A stretch of DNA of 64,000 nt, taken from IMG/VR virus record IMGVR_UViG_3300043823_000198, positions 32,001 to 96,000 of that record; one strand, 5' to 3'. The translations under genes were made by a program, and so were the position numbers. The notes under the pieces are model-generated. The model was not told where the DNA came from. It saw nothing but the letters and a program-made list of their open reading frames with translations, and searched no databases. The DNA comes from a virus. Below, piece after piece: positions 2,797 to 43,536 of the stretch. The first letter of the stretch is position 1; each line of letters begins with the position of its first letter.

Positions 2797-3147
2797 ATGC
2801 AAATAATATACACTACCTCTAAGAAGTCCAAGAAACGCAAGCCAACGGCAAAGCAACGAGAATTGCAAAATTCTTGGGAACTTCTACTTAAGAAGTATAC
2901 CCCAAAGACTGTTGCTCCTAAAAAAGAACAACAACTCGGGGATGTATACTCACTTGGGAAACCTGCTTGTCGTGAGACACCTAAGATTCCAAGTCTTCCA
3001 TTTACTGGCGCTCCCTGCACTAAAAAAGCAACACCAGTTTATACTGGAACTATGATAAAAGGTATTGGTACTATGCATAAATCAAATGCTGTGCCGATTT
3101 TTAGTGATGAGCAGGCAATTGAAATTGCAACTATGCGAAGAAATTAA
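2797..3147 (+). CDS. Basic hypothetical phage protein
   Basis: Follows sigma70 promoter; C-terminal YTGTMIKGIGTMHKSNAVPI motif seen in T4-like phage proteins. Confidence 0.75.
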   Translation: MQIIYTTSKKSKKRKPTAKQRELQNSWELLLKKYTPKTVAPKKEQQLGDVYSLGKPACRETPKIPSLPFTGAPCTKKATPVYTGTMIKGIGTMHKSNAVPIFSDEQAIEIATMRRN

Positions 3148-3149
3148 TT

Positions 3150-3177
3150 TTGAAATTGATATAAAATAGGGTATAAT
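3150..3177 (+). promoter_or_regulatory. Sigma70-type promoter
   Basis: TTGAAA-16 nt-TATAAT, 5 nt before ATG 3183. Confidence 0.6.
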
Positions 3178-3182
3178 ATATT

Positions 3183-3398
3183 ATGACTGATTATGTTGCA
3201 CAAAGAAATAGACTTCTTTCTGAAAAAATGAAGTTAGATAAATTTTTCACAATGTATCTGGATAAGTTTGAACGCAAGATGGATCCAGAAAATCCAAATA
3301 CACCTATTTGGAAATTGTTTAAAGAAAAGTCAAACCACTATAATAAAATTTGTCAGGAAATTCGTAATGCAGAATATTGGATCCGTAAAGCTGTTTAG
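3183..3398 (+). CDS. Hypothetical protein
   Basis: 71 aa helical ORF directly after promoter. Confidence 0.65.
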   Translation: MTDYVAQRNRLLSEKMKLDKFFTMYLDKFERKMDPENPNTPIWKLFKEKSNHYNKICQEIRNAEYWIRKAV

Positions 3399-3606
3399 TT
3401 CTTCAAATGAGTTTTCAATGCACATTGAACAGATAGTGCATGAAAAGAAGATTACATATATGGAAGCCGTTCTACAATATTGTAAAGAAAACTTCATTGA
3501 ACCAGAAGATATCGCAAAGTTGGTTAATAAATCACTCAAGGATAAACTTGAAGTAAATTTCCAAGATGAGAATTATTTACCAAAGAAAGCAACACTGAAT
3601 GTTTGA
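3367..3606 (+). CDS. gp33: Late-transcription co-activator gp33
   Basis: FSMHIEQIVHEKKITYMEAVLQYC..IEPEDIAKLVNKSLKDKL; position before gp59-gp32; start reset to ATG 3367. Confidence 0.85.
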   Translation: MQNIGSVKLFSSSNEFSMHIEQIVHEKKITYMEAVLQYCKENFIEPEDIAKLVNKSLKDKLEVNFQDENYLPKKATLNV

Positions 3607-3618
3607 AAAGAGTAATAC

Positions 3619-4227
3619 GTGGACGGATTTAAAGCATACCGATATTATCTAGCAATTAAACTACACTTCACAACAGATAAATTTAACGTCTTCGAAAATC
3701 GAGGTAATGTAAGAGGATCTCGTGAAGCATTTAATGCTCGTAATGACAGATACATATTTGAGAAAATAGCAAGAAAGTTTTCTTCAGATCGAGACATTGT
3801 TCAATTCTTTGTTGCAAATTTTGCGTATAGTACTGAACCTGCAATTTATGCAGGACAAGAAGCGGAAGATTCTCTTTTTGAGTGGAGCAGAAGAAAACAA
3901 AGTATTAGTAGAATTTTTATTGATGATCTAGCAAATATACTAAATTATGTTGAGATAAACAAATTACCAACTTCTTGTATTTTTGATTTTCAAAATAATG
4001 AGTATCCTGTAGCATTAAAACTATTTTTGGGTAAAAAGATTTCAATTGAAACCCTTGCAATAATCAATGAACTCGATCATGTTGTTGAGCATTGGATAAG
4101 TAATCCTACTGTGCAACATATTTGGGGTAATGAATTATTGCGAATAAAAAAGTTGACAGGTTTCGTTAAATACGATAAAATAAAACTTGGACAAATCTTT
4201 AAACATTTTGTAGAAGAATTAGACTGA
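3619..4227 (+). CDS. gp59: Helicase loader gp59
   Basis: GTG start; AYRYYLAIKLHFTTDKF, RNDRYIFEK; gp33-59-32 synteny. Confidence 0.9.
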   Translation: MDGFKAYRYYLAIKLHFTTDKFNVFENRGNVRGSREAFNARNDRYIFEKIARKFSSDRDIVQFFVANFAYSTEPAIYAGQEAEDSLFEWSRRKQSISRIFIDDLANILNYVEINKLPTSCIFDFQNNEYPVALKLFLGKKISIETLAIINELDHVVEHWISNPTVQHIWGNELLRIKKLTGFVKYDKIKLGQIFKHFVEELD

Positions 4228-8017: not shown

Positions 8018-8436
8018 TATTTCTCTCCTTGCATATTCTTAATCATTTTACTTAATTCTGCTGTACTTCCTACGAAAACAGCATTATTGATCACTTTGTC
8101 AGCAACCTTACCATTTACACTATCAATCTTTTGTTTTTGCTGGTGAATATCTAGCAATTGTTGGTTTACATCAGCAAGTTGTTTCATTAAATTACCAACA
8201 ACTTCAAACGCTCTTGGATGTTCAGATTGTTTAGCAACTTCAAGCGCATGCATTAACGCATTCTGGCCAGTAATGAGAAGTTCTCTTAGATTATCTCTGG
8301 CATGTTCATAATCGTTTTCAATTTTACCCTCTGTAGTTTTTACAATCTCTCCAGTGGTATTATCAATCACTTCAGTTTTTGGTTTTTCTTGAGGTATTAA
8401 ATCAAATACCTCTGATAATGAATCATCAATTTTCAT
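8017..8436 (-). CDS. gp16: Terminase small subunit gp16
   Basis: DYEHARDNL, AKQSEHPRAFEV, NNAVFVGSTAEL. Confidence 0.92.
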   Translation of the reverse strand: MKIDDSLSEVFDLIPQEKPKTEVIDNTTGEIVKTTEGKIENDYEHARDNLRELLITGQNALMHALEVAKQSEHPRAFEVVGNLMKQLADVNQQLLDIHQQKQKIDSVNGKVADKVINNAVFVGSTAELSKMIKNMQGEK

Positions 8437-8437
8437 T

Positions 8438-8947
8438 TTATATGTCGTTTCTAGAGTTTCTCATTGGTGGATCTCCAGCAGTTGTATTTATTGTTGGACG
8501 TGGAATTGGAGTAGGCATTGGTCTTGGGATTGGTGCTGGTGTTGGAGCAGGTACACTTCCAACGCTGCTTGGTGTAGGTGCTGTTGGGGTTGCGACTGGC
8601 GTAGGTGTGCTAGGTGTTGTTGGCACTGTTGGTACGCTGGATGGAATTGAGAGGCCACCATTATTTGCTCCATTCAATTTCTCTTGAGTTCTACCGTAAG
8701 CTGCGATACCAAGAACAGCGCCCATGGCGACGTGAAATAAACCAGCACCTTGTAGCGTTAATGGCTGCCATTGTGTTTGAACTGAACCATGGCTTACACT
8801 TTGTAAAATACTCCATAAAATTGGAGCTAACATAAAGTCAAAACCACAAACAGCCATGTACATCCATCCCATCATTGGACGCCATTTACTATTCATCCAG
8901 TCTTCTTTTTTCTTTTCGCTTGCGCTCATTTCTTGATGATTTGACAT
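8438..8947 (-). CDS. Holin (GTA-type 3TM-like) with Pro/Thr-rich tail
   Basis: WRPMMGWMY..FDFMLAP, WQPLTLQGAGLFHVAMGAVLGIAAYGRTQEK. Confidence 0.75.
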   Translation of the reverse strand: MSNHQEMSASEKKKEDWMNSKWRPMMGWMYMAVCGFDFMLAPILWSILQSVSHGSVQTQWQPLTLQGAGLFHVAMGAVLGIAAYGRTQEKLNGANNGGLSIPSSVPTVPTTPSTPTPVATPTAPTPSSVGSVPAPTPAPIPRPMPTPIPRPTINTTAGDPPMRNSRNDI

Positions 8948-8948
8948 T

Positions 8949-9650
8949 TTAGAATTTAATTAAATTTGGAAGTTTTGATACCAGTGCTGCTCCAGCAGCA
9001 CCAATTGCGAAATTTGATAATCTAGATGTGAATGAAGATTGAATTGGATCTCCATTACTTGTTACATTAGCATAAGGATTAACAGGAAACGTATTATTGT
9101 GAACCTGGTATGTTGCTGTATTTGATTGCGTTATTTGTGGATATGTTTGATACCATTTATATGCAAAATTTACGGAGAGTTTCATTATATCTTTTGCTGC
9201 ATAATCTAATTGAACAGCACCAATACTTTTTGGATATGCCTCATATAAAGATACCATATATGTTGTGTTATCGAATGTGTCTTGAACGTATATGTCGATA
9301 TCAGTAACATAATTATCATAATAATTAAACTGACGTGTTACAGGATCCATAATTTGTGCTTGCCATTGATCAAATAAGTTTTTAACCTGCATGTCTTTAT
9401 CAACATAAAAAGACATATTGATGTCTTCATACAGTTTTTCATATGGAGCTTTTCTAACTTCTCCATATGTTCTTGTATCGCTTGTGTTATAATTTATACC
9501 AGGTAATTGTATTTGATCGCAAAACAAAAGAGCTGCTCTCAACGTATAGTTATCGAACTGAAAGGGTAAGTTTACATTAACAGCATACCTGTTAGTTCTT
9601 GCCATACCATTAGTTTTTACTTGAGCAATAAAATCGTTTATGTTAGCCAT
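8949..9650 (-). CDS. gp54: Baseplate-tail tube junction gp54 (tube-fold paralogue)
   Basis: GMARTNRY, CDQIQLPG, EAYPKSIGAVQLDY, VNFAYKW. Confidence 0.8.
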   Translation of the reverse strand: MANINDFIAQVKTNGMARTNRYAVNVNLPFQFDNYTLRAALLFCDQIQLPGINYNTSDTRTYGEVRKAPYEKLYEDINMSFYVDKDMQVKNLFDQWQAQIMDPVTRQFNYYDNYVTDIDIYVQDTFDNTTYMVSLYEAYPKSIGAVQLDYAAKDIMKLSVNFAYKWYQTYPQITQSNTATYQVHNNTFPVNPYANVTSNGDPIQSSFTSRLSNFAIGAAGAALVSKLPNLIKF

Positions 9651-31144: not shown

Positions 31145-31376
31145 TAGATACTTGAAAGTCAGAGGATATGAGGGTCTTGTTAGAGACACCTCCTCTGGTG
31201 CTATTATAAATACAAATACAGCTGAACTGCAGAATTATTTACGCCAAAGAGAGTTGGCGGAACAAAAAGATCTTCAAATTTCTAAACAATCTGAAGACAT
31301 AAATAATATGAAAGAAGAAATTCAGGAAATAAAATCGTTGATTTATCAACTATTGGACACTAAGGGTAACAAATGA
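31137..31376 (+). CDS. Small coiled-coil phage protein
   Basis: GTG start overlapping previous stop; LVRDTSSGAIINTN plus coiled coil; contains TATAAATA at 31205-12. Confidence 0.75.
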   Translation: MHNRYLKVRGYEGLVRDTSSGAIINTNTAELQNYLRQRELAEQKDLQISKQSEDINNMKEEIQEIKSLIYQLLDTKGNK

Positions 31377-32608
31377 CAACATATACAGTAGGTGCACCAA
31401 CTCTGGTTTTAAGAGCTTCCAAAGGAAGTCCACTATTAAACTCAGAAGTTGATGCTAACTTTACCAATTTAAGTAATGCGGTACAAACATCTCTATTGGC
31501 AAGCACTTATACTGCTGCAGATGTTCTTTCTAAATTAAACTCTGTCACTGCATATAACCAATCTTCTGGTTTAAATGCTGACACTTTAACTTGGAATGGT
31601 GGCAATAGAGCTGCAAGTAGCGCCAATACAGCAAATACAATTGTTGCAAGAGATGGTAATGGAGCATTTACTGCCACTACTATTAACGCAACTACATTCA
31701 ATGGAACATTCTCTGGAACTGCTGCAATTACTTCTGGTTCTATCGCTTTAAGTACTGCCTTGGCAATTACTTCTGGTGGTACTGGAGCTACTTCTGCTTC
31801 TGCCGCAAGAACTAACCTTGGATTGGCGATTGGTTCAAACGTAGAAGCATGGAGCGCTAACTTAGATGCGCTTTCTGGAGTTTCTTCTTCTGCAAACGTA
31901 CTTCCATATTTTACTGGTGTGGGAACTGCATCTGTTACATCGTTCCCATCATACGCTCAATCTCTTGTAGGGTCTAGTTCTGCATCAGCTGCTCAGTCTA
32001 CTCTTGGTTTAGTTATTGGTACCAACGTTCAGGCTTATTCATCAAATTTGGCGGCAACATCTAGTGTTTCTTCTGGTATTATCGCAATGCAAGGAACAGG
32101 ATCTGCTTCTGGTGTAACAATCACGGCTGGCTCTGGTATCTCTGTTTCTAACGGTAACGGTGTTGGTGGTAACCCAACTATTTCTGCAGCTGTTACATCT
32201 GTTCAGGGTATGACTGGCGCAGTTTCTGTTTCTGTTCCTGTTACTTCTGTTCAGGGTATGACTGGAAATTTGACAGTTACTAATATTTCTGGTAGTGCTG
32301 GATACGCATCTTCAGCTGGATACGCATCTTCAGCTGGATACGCATCTTCAGCTGGTGGTGGATGGCCAGGTGCGTTATCATCATTCCATAATAACTTGGG
32401 TAACTATGGTGGATGGGTTCCGCATGGAAATAAGGGAACTGGCAACAACCCTAGCAATGCATGGGGGCGTAACGCTGGAGCATATAATCATGGTCATATT
32501 CCTGGTTCTCACCACTCATATAACTGTCACAATCAAATGCATTTAGACACAGGTCAAGGATTGGATCACTATCACCATTTCATTAATTGCAGAAATTGTA
32601 ACTGCTAA
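31373..32608 (+). CDS. Tail fibre-like protein with His/Cys-rich C-terminal tip
   Basis: KGSPL..EVDANF head, GGTGA..AARTNLGL and VTSVQGMTG fibre repeats; ends HYHHFINCRNCNC. Confidence 0.8.
   Translation: MTTYTVGAPTLVLRASKGSPLLNSEVDANFTNLSNAVQTSLLASTYTAADVLSKLNSVTAYNQSSGLNADTLTWNGGNRAASSANTANTIVARDGNGAFTATTINATTFNGTFSGTAAITSGSIALSTALAITSGGTGATSASAARTNLGLAIGSNVEAWSANLDALSGVSSSANVLPYFTGVGTASVTSFPSYAQSLVGSSSASAAQSTLGLVIGTNVQAYSSNLAATSSVSSGIIAMQGTGSASGVTITAGSGISVSNGNGVGGNPTISAAVTSVQGMTGAVSVSVPVTSVQGMTGNLTVTNISGSAGYASSAGYASSAGYASSAGGGWPGALSSFHNNLGNYGGWVPHGNKGTGNNPSNAWGRNAGAYNHGHIPGSHHSYNCHNQMHLDTGQGLDHYHHFINCRNCNC
32297..32350 (+). repeat. Perfect 18-nt tandem repeat x3 (AGYASS)
   Basis: GCTGGATACGCATCTTCA three times. 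Confidence 0.97.
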
Positions 32609-33571: not shown

Positions 33572-34963
33572 ATGGCGAAATTTGTTATAACTGTAAAACA
33601 CCCTGAAAAAGATGAACTTAAAAAAGTAGTATACGACAGCTCCATCAGTACCTTAACATGGGAAGATGGAACTCCTGTTGTAGAAAATACTCTTACTCAA
33701 GTAGAAGTTCAAAACCCTGCTAAAATTGAAAATGGAAAGAAAGACCTAAAGACTGTAAAAATACAGCTAGGTCTTTCATGCAATTTTGAATGCGATTATT
33801 GTAATCAGAGATTCGTACCTCATGCAGATTCAACTAATCCAGAAGACGTTCAGCCGTTCGTTGATAATATGTCTTCATGGTTTCCAGGTGGGAGGGATGG
33901 TTTAGGCAATGGTACTAAAATTGAATTTTGGGGAGGAGAACCATTAGTTTATTGGAAAACTCTAAAACCATTGGCAGAAGCATTAAGAGAAAAATATCCA
34001 AATGCAATTTTTGGTATAGTAACAAATGGTAGTTTGTTAGATTCAGAAAAAAATGCATGGTTAGACAGACTTGGTTTTGGAGTCGCAGTTTCTCATGATG
34101 GTCCAGGTCAATTTGTTCGAGGACCAGACCCTCTACTAGACGAATTATCAAAATCTGGAATTATTGAATTATATAAAATTCTTGCGCCTAAAGATAGGTT
34201 TACATTTAATTCTATGATCAACTCTAAAAATATTAGTAGAGCTGATATTGAACAGTTTTTTGTAAAATTTGTATCAGAAAATATCGGAGAAGAATATCTT
34301 GAATATTTAATAATTGGAGAGGGCGGTTTCGTTGATGCTTATGACGAAGGTGGAATGGCTAATTCTTTATTAGACGAAGAAGAAGATATTCGATATCGAA
34401 ATATTGCATTAAATGATCTTCGTTCTGGAAATGTAAAACGATTTGAAGTTATACAAAGCAAATATCATGAGTTTGCTAATACAATTATGAATGGTATTCG
34501 AATAGAATCAGTTCCACAAAAATGTGGTATGGACAAATCTAATCAGATGGCAGTTGATCTAAATGGTAATGTTCTGACATGTCAGAACGTCAGTGCTGTT
34601 TCTAATAATCCAGCAGGAGTTTCACATAAAATTGGACATGTTTCTGATTTATCTTCTGTAGAATTAAAGACAGCCACTCATTGGAGCGATAGAAGCGAAT
34701 GCCCAAACTGCCCAGTAGTTCATATATGCAAAGGAGCATGTATGTTTCTCAGTGGTGATCTTTGGGAAGCGAGTTGTAACAATGCGTTTAGCGACAATAT
34801 TTTAATATTCACTCTTGCTATTGAAGATGCTACAGGTGGTTGGATTCCAGGATATATTGATGGTCCATTAAGGGAAGATAGAAAAGATATCTACTGGTGG
34901 ATCAACGGTAAGCCAGAAAAAACACGAAAAGCAAAGAAATTTATTCCTATAATGGCGGTTTAA
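33572..34963 (+). CDS. Radical SAM enzyme with SPASM domain
   Basis: CNFECDYC, WGGEP, TNG, SHDG; SPASM C-x18-C ... CPNCPVVHICKGAC ... C. Confidence 0.95.
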   Translation: MAKFVITVKHPEKDELKKVVYDSSISTLTWEDGTPVVENTLTQVEVQNPAKIENGKKDLKTVKIQLGLSCNFECDYCNQRFVPHADSTNPEDVQPFVDNMSSWFPGGRDGLGNGTKIEFWGGEPLVYWKTLKPLAEALREKYPNAIFGIVTNGSLLDSEKNAWLDRLGFGVAVSHDGPGQFVRGPDPLLDELSKSGIIELYKILAPKDRFTFNSMINSKNISRADIEQFFVKFVSENIGEEYLEYLIIGEGGFVDAYDEGGMANSLLDEEEDIRYRNIALNDLRSGNVKRFEVIQSKYHEFANTIMNGIRIESVPQKCGMDKSNQMAVDLNGNVLTCQNVSAVSNNPAGVSHKIGHVSDLSSVELKTATHWSDRSECPNCPVVHICKGACMFLSGDLWEASCNNAFSDNILIFTLAIEDATGGWIPGYIDGPLREDRKDIYWWINGKPEKTRKAKKFIPIMAV

Positions 34964-34964
34964 T

Positions 34965-35234
34965 ATGAGTTACATTGACGGATATTTGGTTGAGATAAAT
35001 CAGTTTCCAAGATTTGGAGAAAGGTTTACAATAAAAAGTTATTTCTATTACAACTCAAATACAAAAGAATATGGTTACAGGGATACAGTTATCCCAAAAG
35101 AACAAATTATAAATAATGATGATATGACGGAAGAATTAGTTGCAAACATTATAAATAATAATATACCTGCAATGAGAAGGGTCATTGACCCAATAAATTT
35201 AACAGAAAGTTGGATTTTTGAGCCAACAGCATAA
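34965..35234 (+). CDS. Hypothetical protein
   Basis: 89 aa, starts 1 nt after the rSAM stop. Confidence 0.65.
   Translation: MSYIDGYLVEINQFPRFGERFTIKSYFYYNSNTKEYGYRDTVIPKEQIINNDDMTEELVANIINNNIPAMRRVIDPINLTESWIFEPTA
35108..35157 (+). promoter_or_regulatory. Two perfect TATAAATA late promoter motifs upstream of dctP-like gene
   Basis: TATAAATA at 35108-15 and 35150-57. Confidence 0.55.
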
Positions 35235-35244
35235 GGAAAACAAA

Positions 35245-36192
35245 ATGAATTCTAAACATGTAAAATGGGTTATTGCTCACGAACCTATTGGTTTGTTTTT
35301 AAAAGTAGCCGAACATTTTGCTAAAGAAGTTAACGAAAAAACCAACGGTATGTTTAATATCGAAGTTCTTTCATTGTCTGATTATACAGCAAAATACAAT
35401 GATGGCAAAGCAATTACCAAGTATGATCTAATGGAATTGATCAATACTGGTAAGATCGAAATGAGTCACATCTATACCACTTGGCTTGGCGATTATAACA
35501 AAGATCTACATGCTTTAGATCTACCATTCCTATTCCGCGACCATGCTCATGCTGACGCTGTTTTAGAAGGTGAGGTTGGTGCTGAGTTATTAGCTGGCGT
35601 TTCTAAGAATAGCAATATCCATGCTATGTCTTTCACTTACTCTGGTGGTTATCGTGTTGTTCCAGCGAACTTCCGTGCTGACACTGTTGAGTCATGGAAA
35701 GGTCAAGCTGTTCGTACTTCTCGTTCTCCAGTTGCTGTTGAAACATTCAAGCTACTTGGCGCTGAACCAAAAGAGAACATCGCTCTAGAAGAAATGAACG
35801 AATTTGCCGATCGTGGCGAAATCGCTGCTGGTGAATCAACATACGTTCGTATTTTCCCACTCGATCAATATAAGTCGTTCAAGGTTGTTAATGACACTGC
35901 TCACAGCTTGTTCTTAACTTCTATTATTGTTAACAAAGATTTCATGGCTCAATTCGATAAGCAGACTCAAGAGATTATGGCTCAGGCTGCATTTAATGCT
36001 GCTCGTGCTGAACGTCGCGAATCTGTTGCTGATATTCCTAACATTCTTGCTGAATGTAAAGAGAAGGGTGTTGAAGTTGTTCGTATGAATGAAACCGAAG
36101 AGAAGAAATTTAAAGAGATTACTTCTAAGGTTTATGATGTCTTCGCTGATTATTTTACACCTGGACTTGTGCATAAGATCCAATTACATTAA
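35245..36192 (+). CDS. dctP: TRAP transporter substrate-binding protein (DctP family), no signal peptide
   Basis: FAKEVNEKTNG..IEV, LDLPFLFRD..HA..VLEGEVG..LL, GYR, VR, LGA.P; start reset to ATG 35245 after AAGGA. Confidence 0.9.
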   Translation: MNSKHVKWVIAHEPIGLFLKVAEHFAKEVNEKTNGMFNIEVLSLSDYTAKYNDGKAITKYDLMELINTGKIEMSHIYTTWLGDYNKDLHALDLPFLFRDHAHADAVLEGEVGAELLAGVSKNSNIHAMSFTYSGGYRVVPANFRADTVESWKGQAVRTSRSPVAVETFKLLGAEPKENIALEEMNEFADRGEIAAGESTYVRIFPLDQYKSFKVVNDTAHSLFLTSIIVNKDFMAQFDKQTQEIMAQAAFNAARAERRESVADIPNILAECKEKGVEVVRMNETEEKKFKEITSKVYDVFADYFTPGLVHKIQLH

Positions 36193-36209
36193 TCTGAATG
36201 ATGATAAAT

Positions 36210-36233
36210 AAAGGGAGCTTCGGCTCCCTTTTT
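36210..36233 (+). terminator. Intrinsic terminator with C(UUCG)G loop
   Basis: AAAGGGAGC-TTCG-GCTCCCTTTTT. Confidence 0.9.
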
Positions 36234-36248
36234 ATTTTGAGGAAAATT

Positions 36249-37295
36249 ATGGAACAAGATTTTAAAGAATCAATTTTATACTATGATAAGAAGAATGTGT
36301 CTAATTTTGCGCAAAACGATTATACAAAAATTTATAGATTTTTGAATCCAATCACGGATTATAAAGTTTTTCACACATATCTAAGACTTGGTTTAATGGA
36401 ACACAATGCTGTTTATGATAGGAGTGGAGAAATCCCACACTTTCTTAATATGGCAGAAGATTTACATCCATTACCAAAACACATAGAAGGTTATAACAAA
36501 TCTTTTTATGAAGTCGCAGAAAATAGAGCAAAAGAACTACTAGCGTTAAATCAACCGATTAATGTTATGTGGTCTGGTGGTCTTGATAGCACATTCGCAT
36601 TGTTCATGTTACGTAAATTTGCAAACGACAAAGATCAAGTTCGAGTATATGGAACATATAACTCTATCATTGAATCTGGCGACATGTTCGACCGTGTCAT
36701 TAAAGATAATTTCAAATACGAGATATCAACTGCAACACGCAACGACTTAAATTTAAATTCTGAAGGAATTTACGTTAGTGGTATGTGTGGTAATCAATTG
36801 TTTGGTCCAACAGATGATATGTTTGGTAATAATATGTTATTTCATCATACACTTGGAACACCTGAAACAATTTATGAATCATATGAAAAAAATATTGATC
36901 CAGAGTTACTTGAATTTTTATATCCAGCAATTAAGGTTAGCCCAAGAAAAATTGAAACAGTTGCAGATTTAAGATGGTATTGTATATTTAATTTAGACTG
37001 GTATACAGCAATATACGAACATAAAATTTTATTACCAAAAGAAAAAGCTGAGAAAATTTATGGATTTTTTGATTCTATTGAGTTTCAGGAATGGGCTGCT
37101 AACACAAAAGAACCTTTTACAAAAGTGCAAGGAGATCCAAATACTCATCGCTGGCAAATGAGAGAGATTCTTAGTGATATTTTTGGTGAAGTTGAATATG
37201 CAAAAAATAAAGAAAAGAAAATCTCTAATTTTTCAATAACTGAACCAGGCTGGATTGCGCTTTTAGAAGATTATCGAAATGTTTTTATCGATTAA
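36249..37295 (+). CDS. PP-loop ATP pyrophosphatase, asparagine-synthetase C-domain-like
   Basis: MWSGGLDS PP-loop; VSGMCGNQLFG resembles the AsnB SGEGADELFG motif; no glutaminase domain; start reset to ATG 36249 after GAGGA. Confidence 0.75.
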   Translation: MEQDFKESILYYDKKNVSNFAQNDYTKIYRFLNPITDYKVFHTYLRLGLMEHNAVYDRSGEIPHFLNMAEDLHPLPKHIEGYNKSFYEVAENRAKELLALNQPINVMWSGGLDSTFALFMLRKFANDKDQVRVYGTYNSIIESGDMFDRVIKDNFKYEISTATRNDLNLNSEGIYVSGMCGNQLFGPTDDMFGNNMLFHHTLGTPETIYESYEKNIDPELLEFLYPAIKVSPRKIETVADLRWYCIFNLDWYTAIYEHKILLPKEKAEKIYGFFDSIEFQEWAANTKEPFTKVQGDPNTHRWQMREILSDIFGEVEYAKNKEKKISNFSITEPGWIALLEDYRNVFID

Positions 37296-37353: not shown

Positions 37354-37686
37354 ATGGCGACAATTAGCAACCTTTTTGTTGATGCGGGGAGCGACTACAG
37401 CAACATAATTACTGTTGCTGGAAGTAATGGCCAAGCATTGAATTTGACTGGTTATACTGTGGCTTCTCAGATGAGAAAGTCATATCTTTCATCGACTTCA
37501 TATCCATTTACAGCTTCAATTTACAATGCTACAACTGGTCAGGTAAGTATACAGTTATCTTCTGCTTCTTCAGCTGCTATGTGGCCAGGAAGATACCTTT
37601 ACGATGTAGAAATAACATCACCGTCTGGAACACGAACAAGAGTCGTTGAAGGCATTGTAACAATTACCCCTGAGATAACAAAATAA
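37354..37686 (+). CDS. Small virion/fibre adaptor protein
   Basis: NLFVDAGSDY, LNLTGY.VASQMRKSY, GRYLYDVEI..RVVEGIVTITP. Confidence 0.75.
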   Translation: MATISNLFVDAGSDYSNIITVAGSNGQALNLTGYTVASQMRKSYLSSTSYPFTASIYNATTGQVSIQLSSASSAAMWPGRYLYDVEITSPSGTRTRVVEGIVTITPEITK

Positions 37687-37951: not shown

Positions 37952-40888
37952 ATGGCATCAACAATTAGAATTAAAAGATCATCGGTTAATGGTAACCCAA
38001 GTACCCTTGCCGCAGGTGAATTAGCGTATTCATCATATACTGGCTCAGGTGGTAATAGACTTTACGTTGGTACTGGAACAGAAACTGCAGGTAACGCAGC
38101 GAACCACGTTGTTATTGGCGGTCAATACTACACTGGTCTTATCGATGCATCCACTGCTGGCACATTAACAACAAACCAATCTTCAATTCCTGTTCTTTCT
38201 GCAACTGGTACGATTAATCAGTGGTTGGTTGGTAACTTAGGTCTTACTGGTAATACACTAAGCTCTACTAACACCAATGGTAATATTAATATTGCTCCAA
38301 ATGGATCTGGTGCAGTTCAAATTTCTGGTGCTTATACATTACCTACTACTGCTGGCACTAACGGATATGCTCTTATTACCAATGGTAGCTCTGCTGCTTC
38401 ATGGCAAGCAATTTCAACTATCCTTAACTTGGCTGCTGGTGGTGCCACTACAAGCTCTGTAAACCTTCTTAACCAGACACTAACAATTGCTGGTGGTAAC
38501 GGTATTACCACTTCTGTTTCTGGTCAAACTGTTACAATTTCTTCTATTGGTGCGGGTGGTTACACTTCTACTGCAACTGGTGGAACTACAACTACTTTAA
38601 CATCAAGTTCTTCAGCTAATCAATTCTTTGTTGGTACAACTACTCAGACTGTTAAGTTACCTGATTGTACAACTCTTACAATTGGTCAAGAGTATATCAT
38701 CACTAACAATAGTACTGGTGCTCTAACAATTCAAACATCTGCAGGTGGTGCTCTTGCCACAATTAACGCTGGCACTCAAGTAACATTCACTGTTGCTTCT
38801 ACTTCAACTCAGACTTGGGTCCAAGAAATTACTGGTTTCAATAGTTCAACTGGTACTGGTGCTGCTGTATTTGCTTCTAACGCATCATTAACTGGCACTT
38901 CAATTACTAATGCCAGCTTAACAACTCCAACTATTGGTTCTGCTGGCGCATCATTCTCTGGTTCTACATCTGGAACTACAACTCTTGTTGCTTCAGCCAC
39001 TGCTTCTGGTACTCTAACATTACCAGCTGCAACTGATCAGTTGATTGGTCGCGCAACAACTGACACATTAACTAACAAGACATTTGATACTGCTGGAACT
39101 GGTAACGTATTAAAGATTAACGGAAACCAAGTATCTTCTTACACTGGTTCTGGCGCCAATGTTATGTTGTCATCCCAGCCATCTGTTACTGGTGGTATTA
39201 ACTTTAGTGGATCTGGTTCTGGTCAGACTACTGTTTCTGCATCAGCTACTGCTTCTGGTACTCTAACATTACCAGCTGCAACTGATACTTTAGTTGGTCG
39301 TGCCACTACTGACACGCTAACCAATAAAACGATTAATCTTACTAGTAACACTCTAGTTGCCACATCAGCTCAACTTAGATCAGCAGTTAGCGATGAAACA
39401 GGTACTGGTTCATTAGTATTCGCCAACACTCCAACTCTTGTAACTCCAGTTCTTGGTGCAGCAACTGCCACTAGCGTTGTCGCTTCTGCTGGTTTAGTTT
39501 CTACTGGCGCATTTGGTGGTACGTTCTCTGGTGGTATCGTTCTTGATTATTCTGGAAGTACTGGTCGTATTTCTGTTGGTTCAGGTAGCGGTATTGCGTT
39601 ATACAACAATACTGATACTACTCGACAGGCTATATTTGCTGTTGGTTCCACTGGCGCAGTTACGCTTCTAGGTGGTTCAATCACTGGTACTACAGCAGTT
39701 ACAATTAACGCTGGTGGCACAAACTCAAATATCAATTTTGTTCCAACAGGAACTGGAACTGTTGACGTTGGTAGCGCAAGAATTACTTCAGTTGCAACAC
39801 CAGTAAATGCAACTGATGCTGCTAATAAAGCGTATGTTGATGGTCTCAAATCTGGTCTAGATGTTAAGTACCCAGTTCGTTTAGCGACTACTGGTTCTAA
39901 TCTTACAGTAACTGCCTCTGGTTCTGGTGCAGGTAAAACACTTACTAACTCTGGCACTCAAGCAGCCTTTACTCTTGACTCTGTTCCAGCTAATGTTGGC
40001 GACCGTATCCTTGTTAAAGATCAGTCAACTGCCAAAGATAATGGTATCTATACTGTTACTAACATTGGTTCTTCTTCTACAAACTGGGTTCTTACTCGCG
40101 CAACAGATGCTGATGGTTCATCTACCACTGCCACTGTTACTCCAGGTATGTTCTGTTTCGTTACAGAAGGTACTCTGAACGCCAACTCTGGTTATGTTCT
40201 AGCAGAATTCTCTGCTGACGTTGCCACTATCACTGTTGACACTAACCCACAAAACTGGATGCAGTTCTCTGGTGCTGGTGAAATTAACGCTGGTTCTGGT
40301 TTATCTAAGTCTGGTAACACTCTAAGTGCAGTTGTTGATAACTCAACTCTTGCTATCGTAAGCAATCAGTTACAAATTAACTCATCTTACGTTGGTCAAT
40401 CTTCTATCACTACTCTTGGTACTATTACTACTGGCACTTGGCATGGTGGTGTAATTGGCGCAACTTATGGTGGTACTGGTGTTAATAATGGTTCTAATAC
40501 TATTACTCTTGGTGGTAATATTTCTACTGCTGGTTCATTAACTACTACTGGCGCATATTCTCTAGGTCTAACAGTTACTGGCGCAACTAGCGTAACATTA
40601 CCAACTTCTGGTACTCTTGCTACTCTAGCCAACAGCGAAACATTAACTAACAAGACACTTGGTTCTGGTTCTACTTGGAATGGTAACACTGTTGCTGTTG
40701 GTTATGGTGGTACTGGCACTACTTCTTTCACTGCAAATGGTATCGTTTTTGGTAACGGTACTGGTGCTCTTCAGGTTACTGCCGCTGCATCTGGTGGAAC
40801 TGGTAGTGATTACAGCTATCAAATTTTGACAGTGAATGCTTCTGGTGTTCCGCAGTGGTCAAGCTCAATTGACGGTGGCACGTACTAA
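37952..40888 (+). CDS. Tail fibre protein
   Basis: N-terminal IRIKRS..GELAYS; TLTNKT repeats; DAANKAYVD; GDRILVKDQ..NGIY; ends IDGGTY. Confidence 0.85.
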   Translation: MASTIRIKRSSVNGNPSTLAAGELAYSSYTGSGGNRLYVGTGTETAGNAANHVVIGGQYYTGLIDASTAGTLTTNQSSIPVLSATGTINQWLVGNLGLTGNTLSSTNTNGNINIAPNGSGAVQISGAYTLPTTAGTNGYALITNGSSAASWQAISTILNLAAGGATTSSVNLLNQTLTIAGGNGITTSVSGQTVTISSIGAGGYTSTATGGTTTTLTSSSSANQFFVGTTTQTVKLPDCTTLTIGQEYIITNNSTGALTIQTSAGGALATINAGTQVTFTVASTSTQTWVQEITGFNSSTGTGAAVFASNASLTGTSITNASLTTPTIGSAGASFSGSTSGTTTLVASATASGTLTLPAATDQLIGRATTDTLTNKTFDTAGTGNVLKINGNQVSSYTGSGANVMLSSQPSVTGGINFSGSGSGQTTVSASATASGTLTLPAATDTLVGRATTDTLTNKTINLTSNTLVATSAQLRSAVSDETGTGSLVFANTPTLVTPVLGAATATSVVASAGLVSTGAFGGTFSGGIVLDYSGSTGRISVGSGSGIALYNNTDTTRQAIFAVGSTGAVTLLGGSITGTTAVTINAGGTNSNINFVPTGTGTVDVGSARITSVATPVNATDAANKAYVDGLKSGLDVKYPVRLATTGSNLTVTASGSGAGKTLTNSGTQAAFTLDSVPANVGDRILVKDQSTAKDNGIYTVTNIGSSSTNWVLTRATDADGSSTTATVTPGMFCFVTEGTLNANSGYVLAEFSADVATITVDTNPQNWMQFSGAGEINAGSGLSKSGNTLSAVVDNSTLAIVSNQLQINSSYVGQSSITTLGTITTGTWHGGVIGATYGGTGVNNGSNTITLGGNISTAGSLTTTGAYSLGLTVTGATSVTLPTSGTLATLANSETLTNKTLGSGSTWNGNTVAVGYGGTGTTSFTANGIVFGNGTGALQVTAAASGGTGSDYSYQILTVNASGVPQWSSSIDGGTY
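38999..39286 (+). repeat. Perfect 39-nt direct repeat (38999-39037 and 39248-39286)
   Basis: ACTGCTTCTGGTACTCTAACATTACCAGCTGCAACTGAT twice, 249 nt (83 codons) apart. Confidence 0.9.
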
Positions 40889-40934
40889 TAAATAAAACAG
40901 GTGGGTGTAAGCCCCACCCTCAGTATATACTGAG
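40888..40934 (+). promoter_or_regulatory. Late promoter-like motif, hairpin and 16-bp perfect palindrome
   Basis: ATAAATA 40888-94; GGTGGG/CCCACC stem 40900-18; CTCAGTATATACTGAG 40919-34. Confidence 0.65.
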
Positions 40935-40962
40935 TAATGATTTTCTAAATAGAAGGTAGATA

Positions 40963-43536
40963 ATGGCAACGCCACTATTATTAAAACGATCATCCGTTCA
41001 AGGAAAAGTCCCAGCAACAACTTCGCTTCAGTTGGGTGAACTTGCACTTAACACGTATGATGGTAATATTTTCTTTAAGAAATCTCCAAATGGAACAGAC
41101 TCTTTAATTACTGTTTCAACAAACAATAATCTACTTTCTTACATTGTTGTAACATCAAATACAACAGCAGTCGCCAGACAATCCTATATTGCGAATACAT
41201 CTGCAGGTAATTTTACAATTACATTGCCAGCTACACCCAACTCTGGTGATTGGGTAGTTGTTGCTGATGGTGCAAATTTTAGCACAACTCCAGTAACAAT
41301 CGGAGCGAATGGTCAATCTATTGACGGTATCTCTCAAAACTTAAATCTAGACATCGCTGGTGTTTCAGTTACATTGACTTTCAACGGAACAACTTGGTTA
41401 GTATATACTCAGGTTGGCGCCAACGGTGGAGTTGCTAGTGGAGGTGGTTCTGGATCAACATCTTGGACAAGCATAACAGGTAAACCTACATTCGCAACTG
41501 TTGCCACTAGCGGTAGTTATACTGATTTAATAAATCAACCAACTCTGGCACCTTCAGCTACTACTGATACAACAAATGCTTCTAATATTACAAGCGGAAC
41601 ATTGCCAAACGCTCGTCTGAGTTCAGTTCCTAATTCTGCTCTTGCTAATAGTTCTGTTACTATTGGCACAACTACTATCGCATTAGGCGCTTCCAGCACT
41701 ACTCTTACTGGTTTAACATCAGTAACTTCTACATCTTTCGTTGGCGCTTTAACTGGTAATGCGTCAACAGTAACTAATGGTGTTTATACTACTGATACTG
41801 GCACAGTAACCAACACTATGCTTGCTGGTTCAATCGCTAATGCTAAATTAGCAAACAGCACAATTTCTGGTGTTTCTCTTGGTTCAAACTTAAATACATT
41901 GACGTTTGGAACTGGGTTAACAGGAACATCGTATAATGGATCAAGTGCAGTTACTATTGCTCTTGACACAACTGCAGTTAAAAACCTATTCAGCGTTACA
42001 TCTAACTCTGCTGGCACAGAGGCTCTATCATATAGTGGTGGTGTGTTTACATTCACCCCATACGCATTACCAACAGCAACAACATCAACACTTGGTGGTG
42101 TAACTGTTGATGGATCTACTATTACTATCTCTGGAAGCACAATTAGTGCAACATCTTTCCAACCTAATGGTGTATATAATATTACATCATCGGGTGGAAC
42201 AACAACGCTTACTGCTTCCACTGCAACTAACGTAACAGTTACTGGTTCTGCAACGCAAACTATTAAGATGCCAGATGCAACTACGCTAAAGGCTGGTTGG
42301 ATATTCCGTATTAACAATAACACATCATCTGCATCAAGTTTAAATCTACAAGATAGCACTGGGGCTCAAATTGGAACAGTACCTCAGGGTGGTGATTCTC
42401 AGGTAATTCTGTTAACCAATTCCACTGCCGCTGGAACATGGGACGTGCATGGTTGGATTCCGTCCAACATATTAATGGGCTCAAGTATACTACAACTTGG
42501 ATCAAGTAGTTATAGTATCGGTCCATATAATTCATCATTAACCATTGGCTCGGCAAGTTCAGTATCAACAACATATAACTTTGGTACTGGGGCTACTACT
42601 AGCGGAAACACTAAAGCGATTAACATCGGCACAGCTGGTGTTAGTGGCTCAACTACTACAATTACATTGGGCAGCAACGTAAGTGGCGCTACTTCTTCTA
42701 CGGTTGTTAACGGATCGCTTTCCGTAACAACAAGCGGATCAACTGGTTCAATAACAGTTACTGATACTGGAACAAACGGTGGCAATATTGCATTAGTTGG
42801 CAACGGTTCAACTACTCCCAACAAATATCTTCGTTCTTACAATGGTAGCTTTGGAATTGTTAACAGTGGATATACAGCAAGCATAATTAACATTTCTGAT
42901 GCTGGTATGATTTCAACAGGTGGTGCATCCACCGCAAGTAATAATATACCAACTGGTAATGCGATTTCGTTGAATAGTAATGGTTACATCAGTGATGACG
43001 GTAACCTTCACATTACAAGTAGTAGTGGTTCTATTTGGATTAATCCAGTGGATAGTTCCGCAGTTCGCATTGGAACACAATACAATAGCGGATCTGGCGC
43101 AGGTTTAGTTGTTCAGGGTGGTATCACATCTAATACAACAGATCCATCGCAGGGAACTTACTTTACCAAAGTTCAAACCAATTGGAACGTTAATCAACCA
43201 TCACTGGCTATGGATAACTTAAACGTGAGGTTGAATAATAGTAGTGGGAATAACTTATTGATACAGGCCAGTGCAGTCAGTGGATCATTTACTGCTTATA
43301 TAACTACTTTTGAAAGCTGTGCAGGAAATCCACTTACTAGCCAAACCAACTCTGGTGGTATTACATTTACAGCAGGAACTTGGACCAGCATCAATGCCGT
43401 TCACACATTAAGTTCTGGTGGTGATGTTATCTTTTTCTTTCTTTCTGATACTACATCTGGTAAAATATATCGTGTTACTTGTTTACACACCAATGGCGCA
43501 ACCAATGGATCTATCTTTATTGAGCGTATGGTGTAA
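40963..43536 (+). CDS. Tail fibre protein
   Basis: LLLKRSS..GELALNTYDG; TITLPATP..GD.V; WTSITGKPTFATVATSGSYTDL; Thr/Ser/Gly rich. Confidence 0.85.
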   Translation: MATPLLLKRSSVQGKVPATTSLQLGELALNTYDGNIFFKKSPNGTDSLITVSTNNNLLSYIVVTSNTTAVARQSYIANTSAGNFTITLPATPNSGDWVVVADGANFSTTPVTIGANGQSIDGISQNLNLDIAGVSVTLTFNGTTWLVYTQVGANGGVASGGGSGSTSWTSITGKPTFATVATSGSYTDLINQPTLAPSATTDTTNASNITSGTLPNARLSSVPNSALANSSVTIGTTTIALGASSTTLTGLTSVTSTSFVGALTGNASTVTNGVYTTDTGTVTNTMLAGSIANAKLANSTISGVSLGSNLNTLTFGTGLTGTSYNGSSAVTIALDTTAVKNLFSVTSNSAGTEALSYSGGVFTFTPYALPTATTSTLGGVTVDGSTITISGSTISATSFQPNGVYNITSSGGTTTLTASTATNVTVTGSATQTIKMPDATTLKAGWIFRINNNTSSASSLNLQDSTGAQIGTVPQGGDSQVILLTNSTAAGTWDVHGWIPSNILMGSSILQLGSSSYSIGPYNSSLTIGSASSVSTTYNFGTGATTSGNTKAINIGTAGVSGSTTTITLGSNVSGATSSTVVNGSLSVTTSGSTGSITVTDTGTNGGNIALVGNGSTTPNKYLRSYNGSFGIVNSGYTASIINISDAGMISTGGASTASNNIPTGNAISLNSNGYISDDGNLHITSSSGSIWINPVDSSAVRIGTQYNSGSGAGLVVQGGITSNTTDPSQGTYFTKVQTNWNVNQPSLAMDNLNVRLNNSSGNNLLIQASAVSGSFTAYITTFESCAGNPLTSQTNSGGITFTAGTWTSINAVHTLSSGGDVIFFFLSDTTSGKIYRVTCLHTNGATNGSIFIERMV

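Follow-up and report, generated by a model that had tools for sequence, protein, structure and literature searches.

A leaderless DctP-family protein of a T4-like phage that may serve an AsnB-like synthetase instead of a TRAP transporter

What does a T4-like phage gain from a solute-binding protein of the TRAP transporter family that has neither a leader for export nor membrane subunits to work with? The question is raised by a 64,000-nt stretch of IMG/VR virus record IMGVR_UViG_3300043823_000198 (positions 32,001 to 96,000; the whole stretch is called the window below), in which a DctP-family gene stands between a small open reading frame and the gene of a PP-loop enzyme. The source genome, a 165,633-bp record rated complete, is T4-like and encodes homologues of gp6, gp18 (sheath), gp20 (portal), gp22 (scaffold), gp23 (capsid) and UvsW. 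An initial annotation had proposed that the gene product is an abundant cytoplasmic ligand sponge or sensor, a carrier for neighbouring enzymes or a virion-attached binding protein, and that it is not a transport AMG. The following features of the window are referred to throughout:

33572-34963, plus strand: radical SAM/SPASM enzyme
34965-35234, plus strand: g89, 89 aa, an open reading frame which carries both upstream TATAAATA motifs and occurs in the T4-like clade only; no match in Pfam, NCBIfam or PHROG
35108-35115, plus strand: first TATAAATA, resembling a T4-type late promoter, inside the g89 coding sequence and 137 nt 5' of the DctP start
35150-35157, plus strand: second TATAAATA, also T4-type late-promoter-like, 95 nt 5' of the DctP start
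35233-35237, plus strand: Shine-Dalgarno sequence AAGGA, 7 nt 5' of the ATG, by sequence reading
35245-36192, plus strand: leaderless DctP-family solute-binding protein P0001, 315 aa, starting MNSKHVKWVIAHEP
36210-36238, plus strand: intrinsic terminator with a 9-bp stem (AAAGGGAGC / GCTCCCTTT), a UUCG loop (stem-loop 36210-36231) and a T-run
36249-37295, plus strand: AsnB-family PP-loop synthetase-domain protein, 348 aa, with SGGLDS and without a glutaminase domain
37354-37686: tail-fibre-assembly-like protein, 110 aa (PHROG L-shaped tail fibre assembly protein, E 2e-21)

The assignment of the 315-aa product to the DctP family holds at the level of both HMMs and predicted structure. It matches Pfam PF03480 over residues 20-300 with an E-value of 1.1e-40 and 140 bits (cut-off 23.4) as well as NCBIfam TRAP_S1 with 109 bits (cut-off 50). 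An AF2 model computed from an alignment of 50 relatives has a pLDDT of 97 and adopts the two-lobe type II binding-protein fold, and in Foldseek more than 40 TRAP binding proteins of known structure superpose on it with TM-scores of 0.84-0.88. Two arginines which had been singled out in the initial annotation, R137 in a GYR motif and R157 in a VR motif, indeed align with Arg residues of the solved TRAP binding proteins 4xfe, 4ovr and 4p8b, and position 137 is Arg in 42 and Lys in four of 50 subfamily members. R137 is the equivalent of Arg-147 of SiaP, the carboxylate selectivity filter of the family, which is present in 96.8% (PMC4646407). Since these carboxylate-binding arginines are retained, the phage protein most likely closes around a small organic acid. 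The subfamily also has typical residues of its own, namely E13 and E197 (each in 39 of 50 members), Q/H75, T199 and an extra Arg at position 202 (47 of 50), together with a specific motif, (K/R)W(V/L)(I/L)AHEP. H12, H102, H220, E256, R257 and R202 are nearly invariant, and the sole cysteine, C271, is not conserved. As a guess, the subfamily residues could accommodate an acid that bears another anionic group and perhaps also an amine, so that the ligand is possibly an amino-dicarboxylate. In the fold alignments, even the closest proteins of known structure share just ~19-24% identity with the phage protein.

The lack of a signal peptide, the point on which the initial annotation had built, is seen at several levels. 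In the AF2 model the first beta-strand comprises residues 4-10; the fold thus begins at residue 4 and leaves no room for a leader. Upstream of the start codon, the open frame extends by no more than nine codons, all hydrophilic (TTG at 35218), and the highest 10-residue hydropathy of the N-terminus is 1.29, compared to 2.4-3.6 in relatives with signal peptides. Of the 63 distinct viral copies, all but one are leaderless (62 of 63), and a signal peptide was seen in none. In contrast, the TctC binding proteins encoded in the same phage loci have textbook signal peptides, and these phages therefore encode leaders where export is needed. Together, the leaderless copies across relatives and the leaders of TctC indicate that the missing leader is a property of the protein and not a gene-calling artefact.

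Cognate membrane subunits are missing as well. The initial annotation had noted their absence from the window, and this now extends to the whole 165,633-bp genome and to five related phage genomes (four of them complete, with terminal repeats), none of which has a DctM or DctQ match at E<=1. No TctC or TctA was found in the source phage genome either. When prokaryotes were scanned with a motif seed, at one genome per species, 63 bacterial loci of the same subfamily emerged; no DctM or DctQ match was present among the neighbours checked in these loci, and DctM is absent genome-wide from four of five Bdellovibrionota MAGs which hold the subfamily. Suspected TRAP membrane genes beside distant homologues in loci L084 and L089 proved to be Kup and DsbB. 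The phage protein therefore has neither the signal peptide or lipobox of a TRAP periplasmic subunit nor, within the six phage genomes searched, a cognate DctQ and DctM. These observations support the view of the initial annotation that the gene is not a transport AMG, and they suggest that its product takes no part in a TRAP transporter.

Relatives of this DctP are found on 491 viral contigs, and more than 120 of them share above 80% identity, all with a length of ~315 aa. Among the cultured phages in INPHARED there is no close relative (seven protein hits at 22-27% identity, none by DNA). PHROGs holds the protein only in a family of 'unknown function' and without structural annotation, and we found no paper on leaderless or phage-borne DctP. 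The bacterial loci belong nearly all to Bdellovibrionota, with some in Elusimicrobia and a few in Myxococcota, and about half of the bacterial proteins have a signal peptide and about half do not. In a maximum-likelihood tree, the signal-peptide forms are basal under midpoint rooting. One leaderless clade (SH-aLRT 97) comprises 60 viral and 12 bacterial sequences, and within it the T4-like copies interleave with those of other phage types. The leaderless state is thus common to phages and Bdellovibrionota, and the tree does not place the loss of the leader in phages. For the same reason we see no support for the earlier notion that the protein was repurposed by the phage. Three contigs with leaderless DctP (L050, L054 and L055) were binned as Polynucleobacter, which provides a lead to a host; other Burkholderiales and Bdellovibrionota are further candidates.

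Several signals argue for late and abundant synthesis of the protein. The two TATAAATA motifs upstream of the gene are present at 35108 and 35150 as initially annotated, although the seven occurrences in the window correspond to chance level (shuffle mean 7.06). Enrichment of the motif was therefore discarded as an argument; what speaks for the motif is its strand, its position and the fact that it recurs in relatives. All seven occurrences in the window are on the coding strand, and N-ATAAATA is located 37-160 nt 5' of DctP in 53 of the 63 distinct viral copies, falling within the poorly conserved g89 reading frame in the T4-like clade. Moreover, NATAAATA upstream of DctP recurs in related loci. 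A -10-like element which lies upstream on the coding strand and recurs in relatives is what a T4-type late unit displays, and the TATAAATA motifs would here act as a late promoter. At the other end of the gene, the terminator recognized at the outset consists of the 9-bp stem, UUCG loop and T-run listed above; a comparable terminator follows 43 of the 63 viral DctP copies but only ~10% of other ORFs. The sequence of the stem varies from locus to locus. Two further motifs were observed in the vicinity: one TATAAATA lies 38 nt upstream of the tail-fibre-assembly-like gene, and GATAAATA is found at window positions 36202-36209, between the DctP stop codon and the terminator hairpin, where it might provide the PP-loop gene with a late-type transcription start, the hairpin being read through.

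Codon usage points in the same direction. As had been stated from the sequence of the window, the Arg codons of DctP are all CGT or CGC (11/11) like those of the capsid gene (19/19), whereas these codons make up 1/16 in the radical SAM gene, 4/14 in the PP-loop gene and 0/5 in g89, with a genome average of 48%. With capsid, sheath, scaffold and tube genes as reference, the CAI of DctP ranks sixth among 194 ORFs. Across the 63 viral copies, CGY accounts for 86% of Arg codons compared to 41% in the rest of the locus, and the DctP value is the higher one in all 63 loci. In addition, the protein is conserved on a par with the major capsid protein (MCP), with DctP/MCP identities of 81/89, 86/81, 82/81, 78/77 and 77/73 in five related genomes. 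The combination of codon bias with promoter and terminator elements that recur across relatives gives good support to the proposal of an abundant late protein.

Which protein could require such an abundant binder? A census in which all ORFs of 152 loci were clustered and 86 viral loci were counted revealed the PP-loop gene as the most constant neighbour of DctP, present within 3.5 kb in 68 of the 86 loci. The radical SAM gene (48 loci) and g89 (47 loci) follow, the former in a looser association. The pairing of DctP with the PP-loop gene spans at least six viral architectures and the bacterial loci L034, L036 and L037. Besides the T4-like tail module, the architectures include an f33-PPloop-[TctC]-DctP-f23 cassette in other phages, PPloop-TctA-x-DctP, doubled genes, and f33-PPloop-DctP in the bacterial L036 and L037. 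In the remaining 18 viral loci, a PP-loop gene is missing from this range. Truncation applies to some of them, though not to L009, L016, L031 and L121. Thus, of the three roles initially offered, that of a carrier for the neighbouring enzymes is the one we favour, with the difference that the steady partner is the PP-loop enzyme downstream and not the radical SAM enzyme.

The PP-loop protein itself has no match in Pfam, NCBIfam or PHROG. Its SGGLDS motif is invariant in an alignment of its relatives (A2). VIA-align places the model closest to human ASNS (Z 14.0), followed by TsnB9 (13.3), beta-lactam synthetase (12.5), AsnB (11.8) and a fifth hit at 11.4; all five belong to the AsnB family, and generic PP-loop folds score 9.8 or less. 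The match to human ASNS covers 216 aligned residues and the synthetase half only (chain residues 177-484), and residues 1-71 of the PP-loop model are of low confidence. In the Atlas, the protein reaches TM-scores of 0.59-0.65 to Asn_synthase clusters, while its own clusters are 78-100% viral. It therefore has the PP-loop SGGxDS motif and synthetase fold of the AsnB family but not the class II glutaminase N-terminal domain. QueC, NadE, LarE and TilS were rejected as identities, as they match only around the PP-loop motif and have fold scores below those of the AsnB family. AsnB-type enzymes adenylate a carboxylate and then form an amide. One observation counts against a joint function: the PP-loop gene comes after the terminator and its codon usage is ordinary, which implies very unequal production of the two proteins. 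Prediction of a complex between the PP-loop protein and DctP gave scores of 0.06, 0.33 and 0.01, which speak neither for nor against physical contact.

The wider neighbourhoods contain importers. MFS transporters stand beside leaderless DctP in six Bdellovibrionota loci, and an exported TctC is encoded near leaderless DctP in 17 viral loci. The phage TctC proteins (Bug family) are ~300 aa long with clear signal peptides, and up to three copies occur per locus (loci with TctC include L009, L011, L016, L027-L029, L031, L098, L101, L141 and L144). Bug expansions are typical of Burkholderiales. A full-length TctA is present in phage contig L144 (9802-11220, plus strand; Pfam E 7e-140) and also in L139. 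In L144 it adjoins a 138-aa ORF, an exported TctC, leaderless DctP and two PP-loop genes; the 138-aa ORF might be TctB, and L144 may thus carry a complete phage-borne TTT importer.

Other neighbours are more varied. In L148, which is from another phage lineage, f33-PPloop-DctP lies between genes for an FkbM-type methyltransferase and for a fatty-acid-desaturase-like protein (2837-3865 and 8338-9150). In the Bacteriovoracaceae loci L048 (10861-12231), L051 and L074, chromosomal homologues with 34-35% identity to the radical SAM/SPASM enzyme of the window are located 4-5 kb from a signal-peptide DctP. Signal-peptide members of the subfamily in Bdellovibrionota were also observed in Dlt-like clusters (L025, L026, L036, L043-L046, L058, L059, L061 and L079). 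These clusters hold an AMP-binding enzyme, a 72-86-aa ORF without Pfam match which may encode a carrier protein, and a 334-aa protein, along with an MBOAT in L025 (by Pfam) and multi-TM ORFs of similar size in the others. AMP-binding enzymes are another carboxylate-activating class. Neither Pfam nor PHROG gave a match for the recurrent neighbours f33, f24, f19, f13, f23, g89 and g310, and f33 matched nothing in the Atlas; hhalign found no link of g89 to f23 or f19, nor of g310 to f33, f24, f27 or f19.

Based on these data, our preferred explanation, which we consider quite possible although short of probable, is that the phage DctP is an abundant cytoplasmic acid-binding protein which works with the AsnB-like synthetase, and that the gene has no part in TRAP transport. 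A late promoter and a terminator of its own would drive the synthesis of large amounts late in infection, and in the cytoplasm the protein would close around a small organic acid. We infer that it could then serve as a stoichiometric intracellular trap or holder for the acid substrate or product of the PP-loop enzyme, which would adenylate the carboxylate and subsequently form an amide. Where TTT or MFS importers are encoded next to DctP, as in other phages and in Bdellovibrionota, these might take up the acid. The resulting pathway, in which TTT or MFS import is followed by capture by abundant leaderless DctP and hand-over to a virus-typical AsnB-like ligase, is a tentative extension that we regard as rather doubtful. 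If true, hundreds of aquatic phages, along with predatory bacteria, would have a kind of import-trap-ligate pathway that has not been described before. To our knowledge, no SBP-fold protein handing its substrate to a cytoplasmic ligase has been described.

Abundance and retained binding residues would equally be expected of a free-standing metabolite sponge or sensor, with the PP-loop gene as an incidental neighbour, and the 18 viral loci without a nearby PP-loop gene fit such a role. We nevertheless consider it unlikely: the pairing with the PP-loop gene persists across at least six architectures and in bacteria, and late-type promoters suit a sponge poorly, given that one directed against host defences should act early. 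Moreover, the phage sponges known to us have other folds.

A virion-associated or fibre-assembly protein, which might decorate the particle, chaperone a fibre or bind an acidic sugar of the host surface, is suggested by the setting of the gene. In the window, fibre genes flank the DctP region (31373-32608 and 37952-43536), the tail-fibre-assembly-like gene at 37354 is close by, and DctP has late-type promoter motifs as well as a codon bias and a conservation that resemble those of the capsid gene. A contribution to fibre modification or assembly would likewise agree with the tail-fibre setting and the adjacent radical SAM maturase. However, other phage lineages, whose DctP is 55-80% identical, keep the gene away from structural genes and among replication genes, an FkbM methyltransferase, a desaturase-like gene or TctC/TctA, and a virion role is less likely for this reason. 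Close leaderless relatives also reside on Bdellovibrionota chromosomes beside MFS transporters, PHROGs offers no structural annotation, and Venus-flytrap pockets enclose free ligands and not polymer-bound residues. The virion-attached protein of the initial annotation thus seems a poor candidate.

Transitions from SBPs to enzymes are known, such as cyclohexadienyl dehydratase and MqnA, and the near-invariance of H12, H102, H220, E256, R257 and R202 could reflect catalysis by conserved His, Glu and Arg residues. Alternatively, DctP could be the protein substrate of neighbouring maturases, as the order of a highly expressed gene, a terminator and enzymes resembles RiPP operons. Both variants are improbable in our view. 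Alignments show that several of these residues are general to the DctP family, and expression at such a level would be unusual for an enzyme. A substrate for thioether or other Cys crosslinks is ruled out, since C271 is not conserved. Finally, an ordinary transport AMG that reaches the periplasm by an unrecognised route or after lysis and feeds a host DctQM, which is conceivable if the host encodes these subunits, and which has a precedent in cyanophage PstS as a phage binding protein without membrane parts, appears highly improbable in view of the 62 leaderless copies among 63 next to TctC proteins that do have a leader, the four of five MAGs of the closest cellular relatives without DctM and the lack of DctM or DctQ among the neighbours checked in 63 bacterial loci.

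We therefore return to the cytoplasmic acid binder paired with the AsnB-like synthetase and to what it would mean. Annotation pipelines and virome studies, as seen in source names, label the gene 'TRAP-type C4-dicarboxylate transport', and it can thus be counted as a transport AMG; by the evidence presented here this label is wrong for a family found on 491 viral contigs. If the protein is a cytoplasmic acid trap that cooperates with an AsnB-like ligase, this would be a new use of the binding-protein fold and would indicate that widespread freshwater phages need one particular metabolite late in infection. As DctP is a small and soluble protein with a confident model, identification of its ligand should be easy, and this ligand would also give the substrate of an as yet unassigned viral enzyme family.

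Among known systems, the TRAP binding proteins such as H. influenzae SiaP and R. capsulatus DctP share with the phage protein the two-lobe fold, the HMM family, the carboxylate-selecting Arg and the second Arg, and 4xfe, 4ovr and 4p8b are the closest solved members by sequence. In contrast to these proteins, the phage DctP lacks a signal peptide, and DctQ and DctM are absent from its genome and from most genomes of its closest relatives; furthermore, it has the motif (K/R)W(V/L)(I/L)AHEP, Arg 202 and an AsnB-like partner. Cyanophage PstS and phage TctC are likewise cases in which a phage carries only the soluble binding component, but they are exported and use a membrane permease of the host, whereas the phage DctP cannot be exported. 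Orphan Bug/TctC proteins of Bordetella and other Betaproteobacteria similarly lack, or far outnumber, cognate membrane genes; some reach high abundance, and roles outside transport have been suggested for them (PMC5812351). As members of the TTT family, these Bug proteins reside in the periplasm, whereas the phage protein is of the DctP family and predicted to be cytoplasmic, despite the definition of such binding proteins as extracytoplasmic in the review literature (PMC5812351). On the side of the partner, the product of 36249-37295 shares the PP-loop SGGxDS motif and the synthetase fold (Z 11.4-14.0) with AsnB-family synthetases, which include asparagine synthetase B, beta-lactam synthetase, carbapenam synthetase, TsnB9 and the lasso-peptide cyclases. 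It differs from them by the missing N-terminal glutaminase, by the lack of Pfam, NCBIfam and PHROG matches and by Atlas clusters that are 78-100% viral. The chemistry of the AsnB family starts from a carboxylate, which would well suit a carboxylate binder as a gene neighbour.
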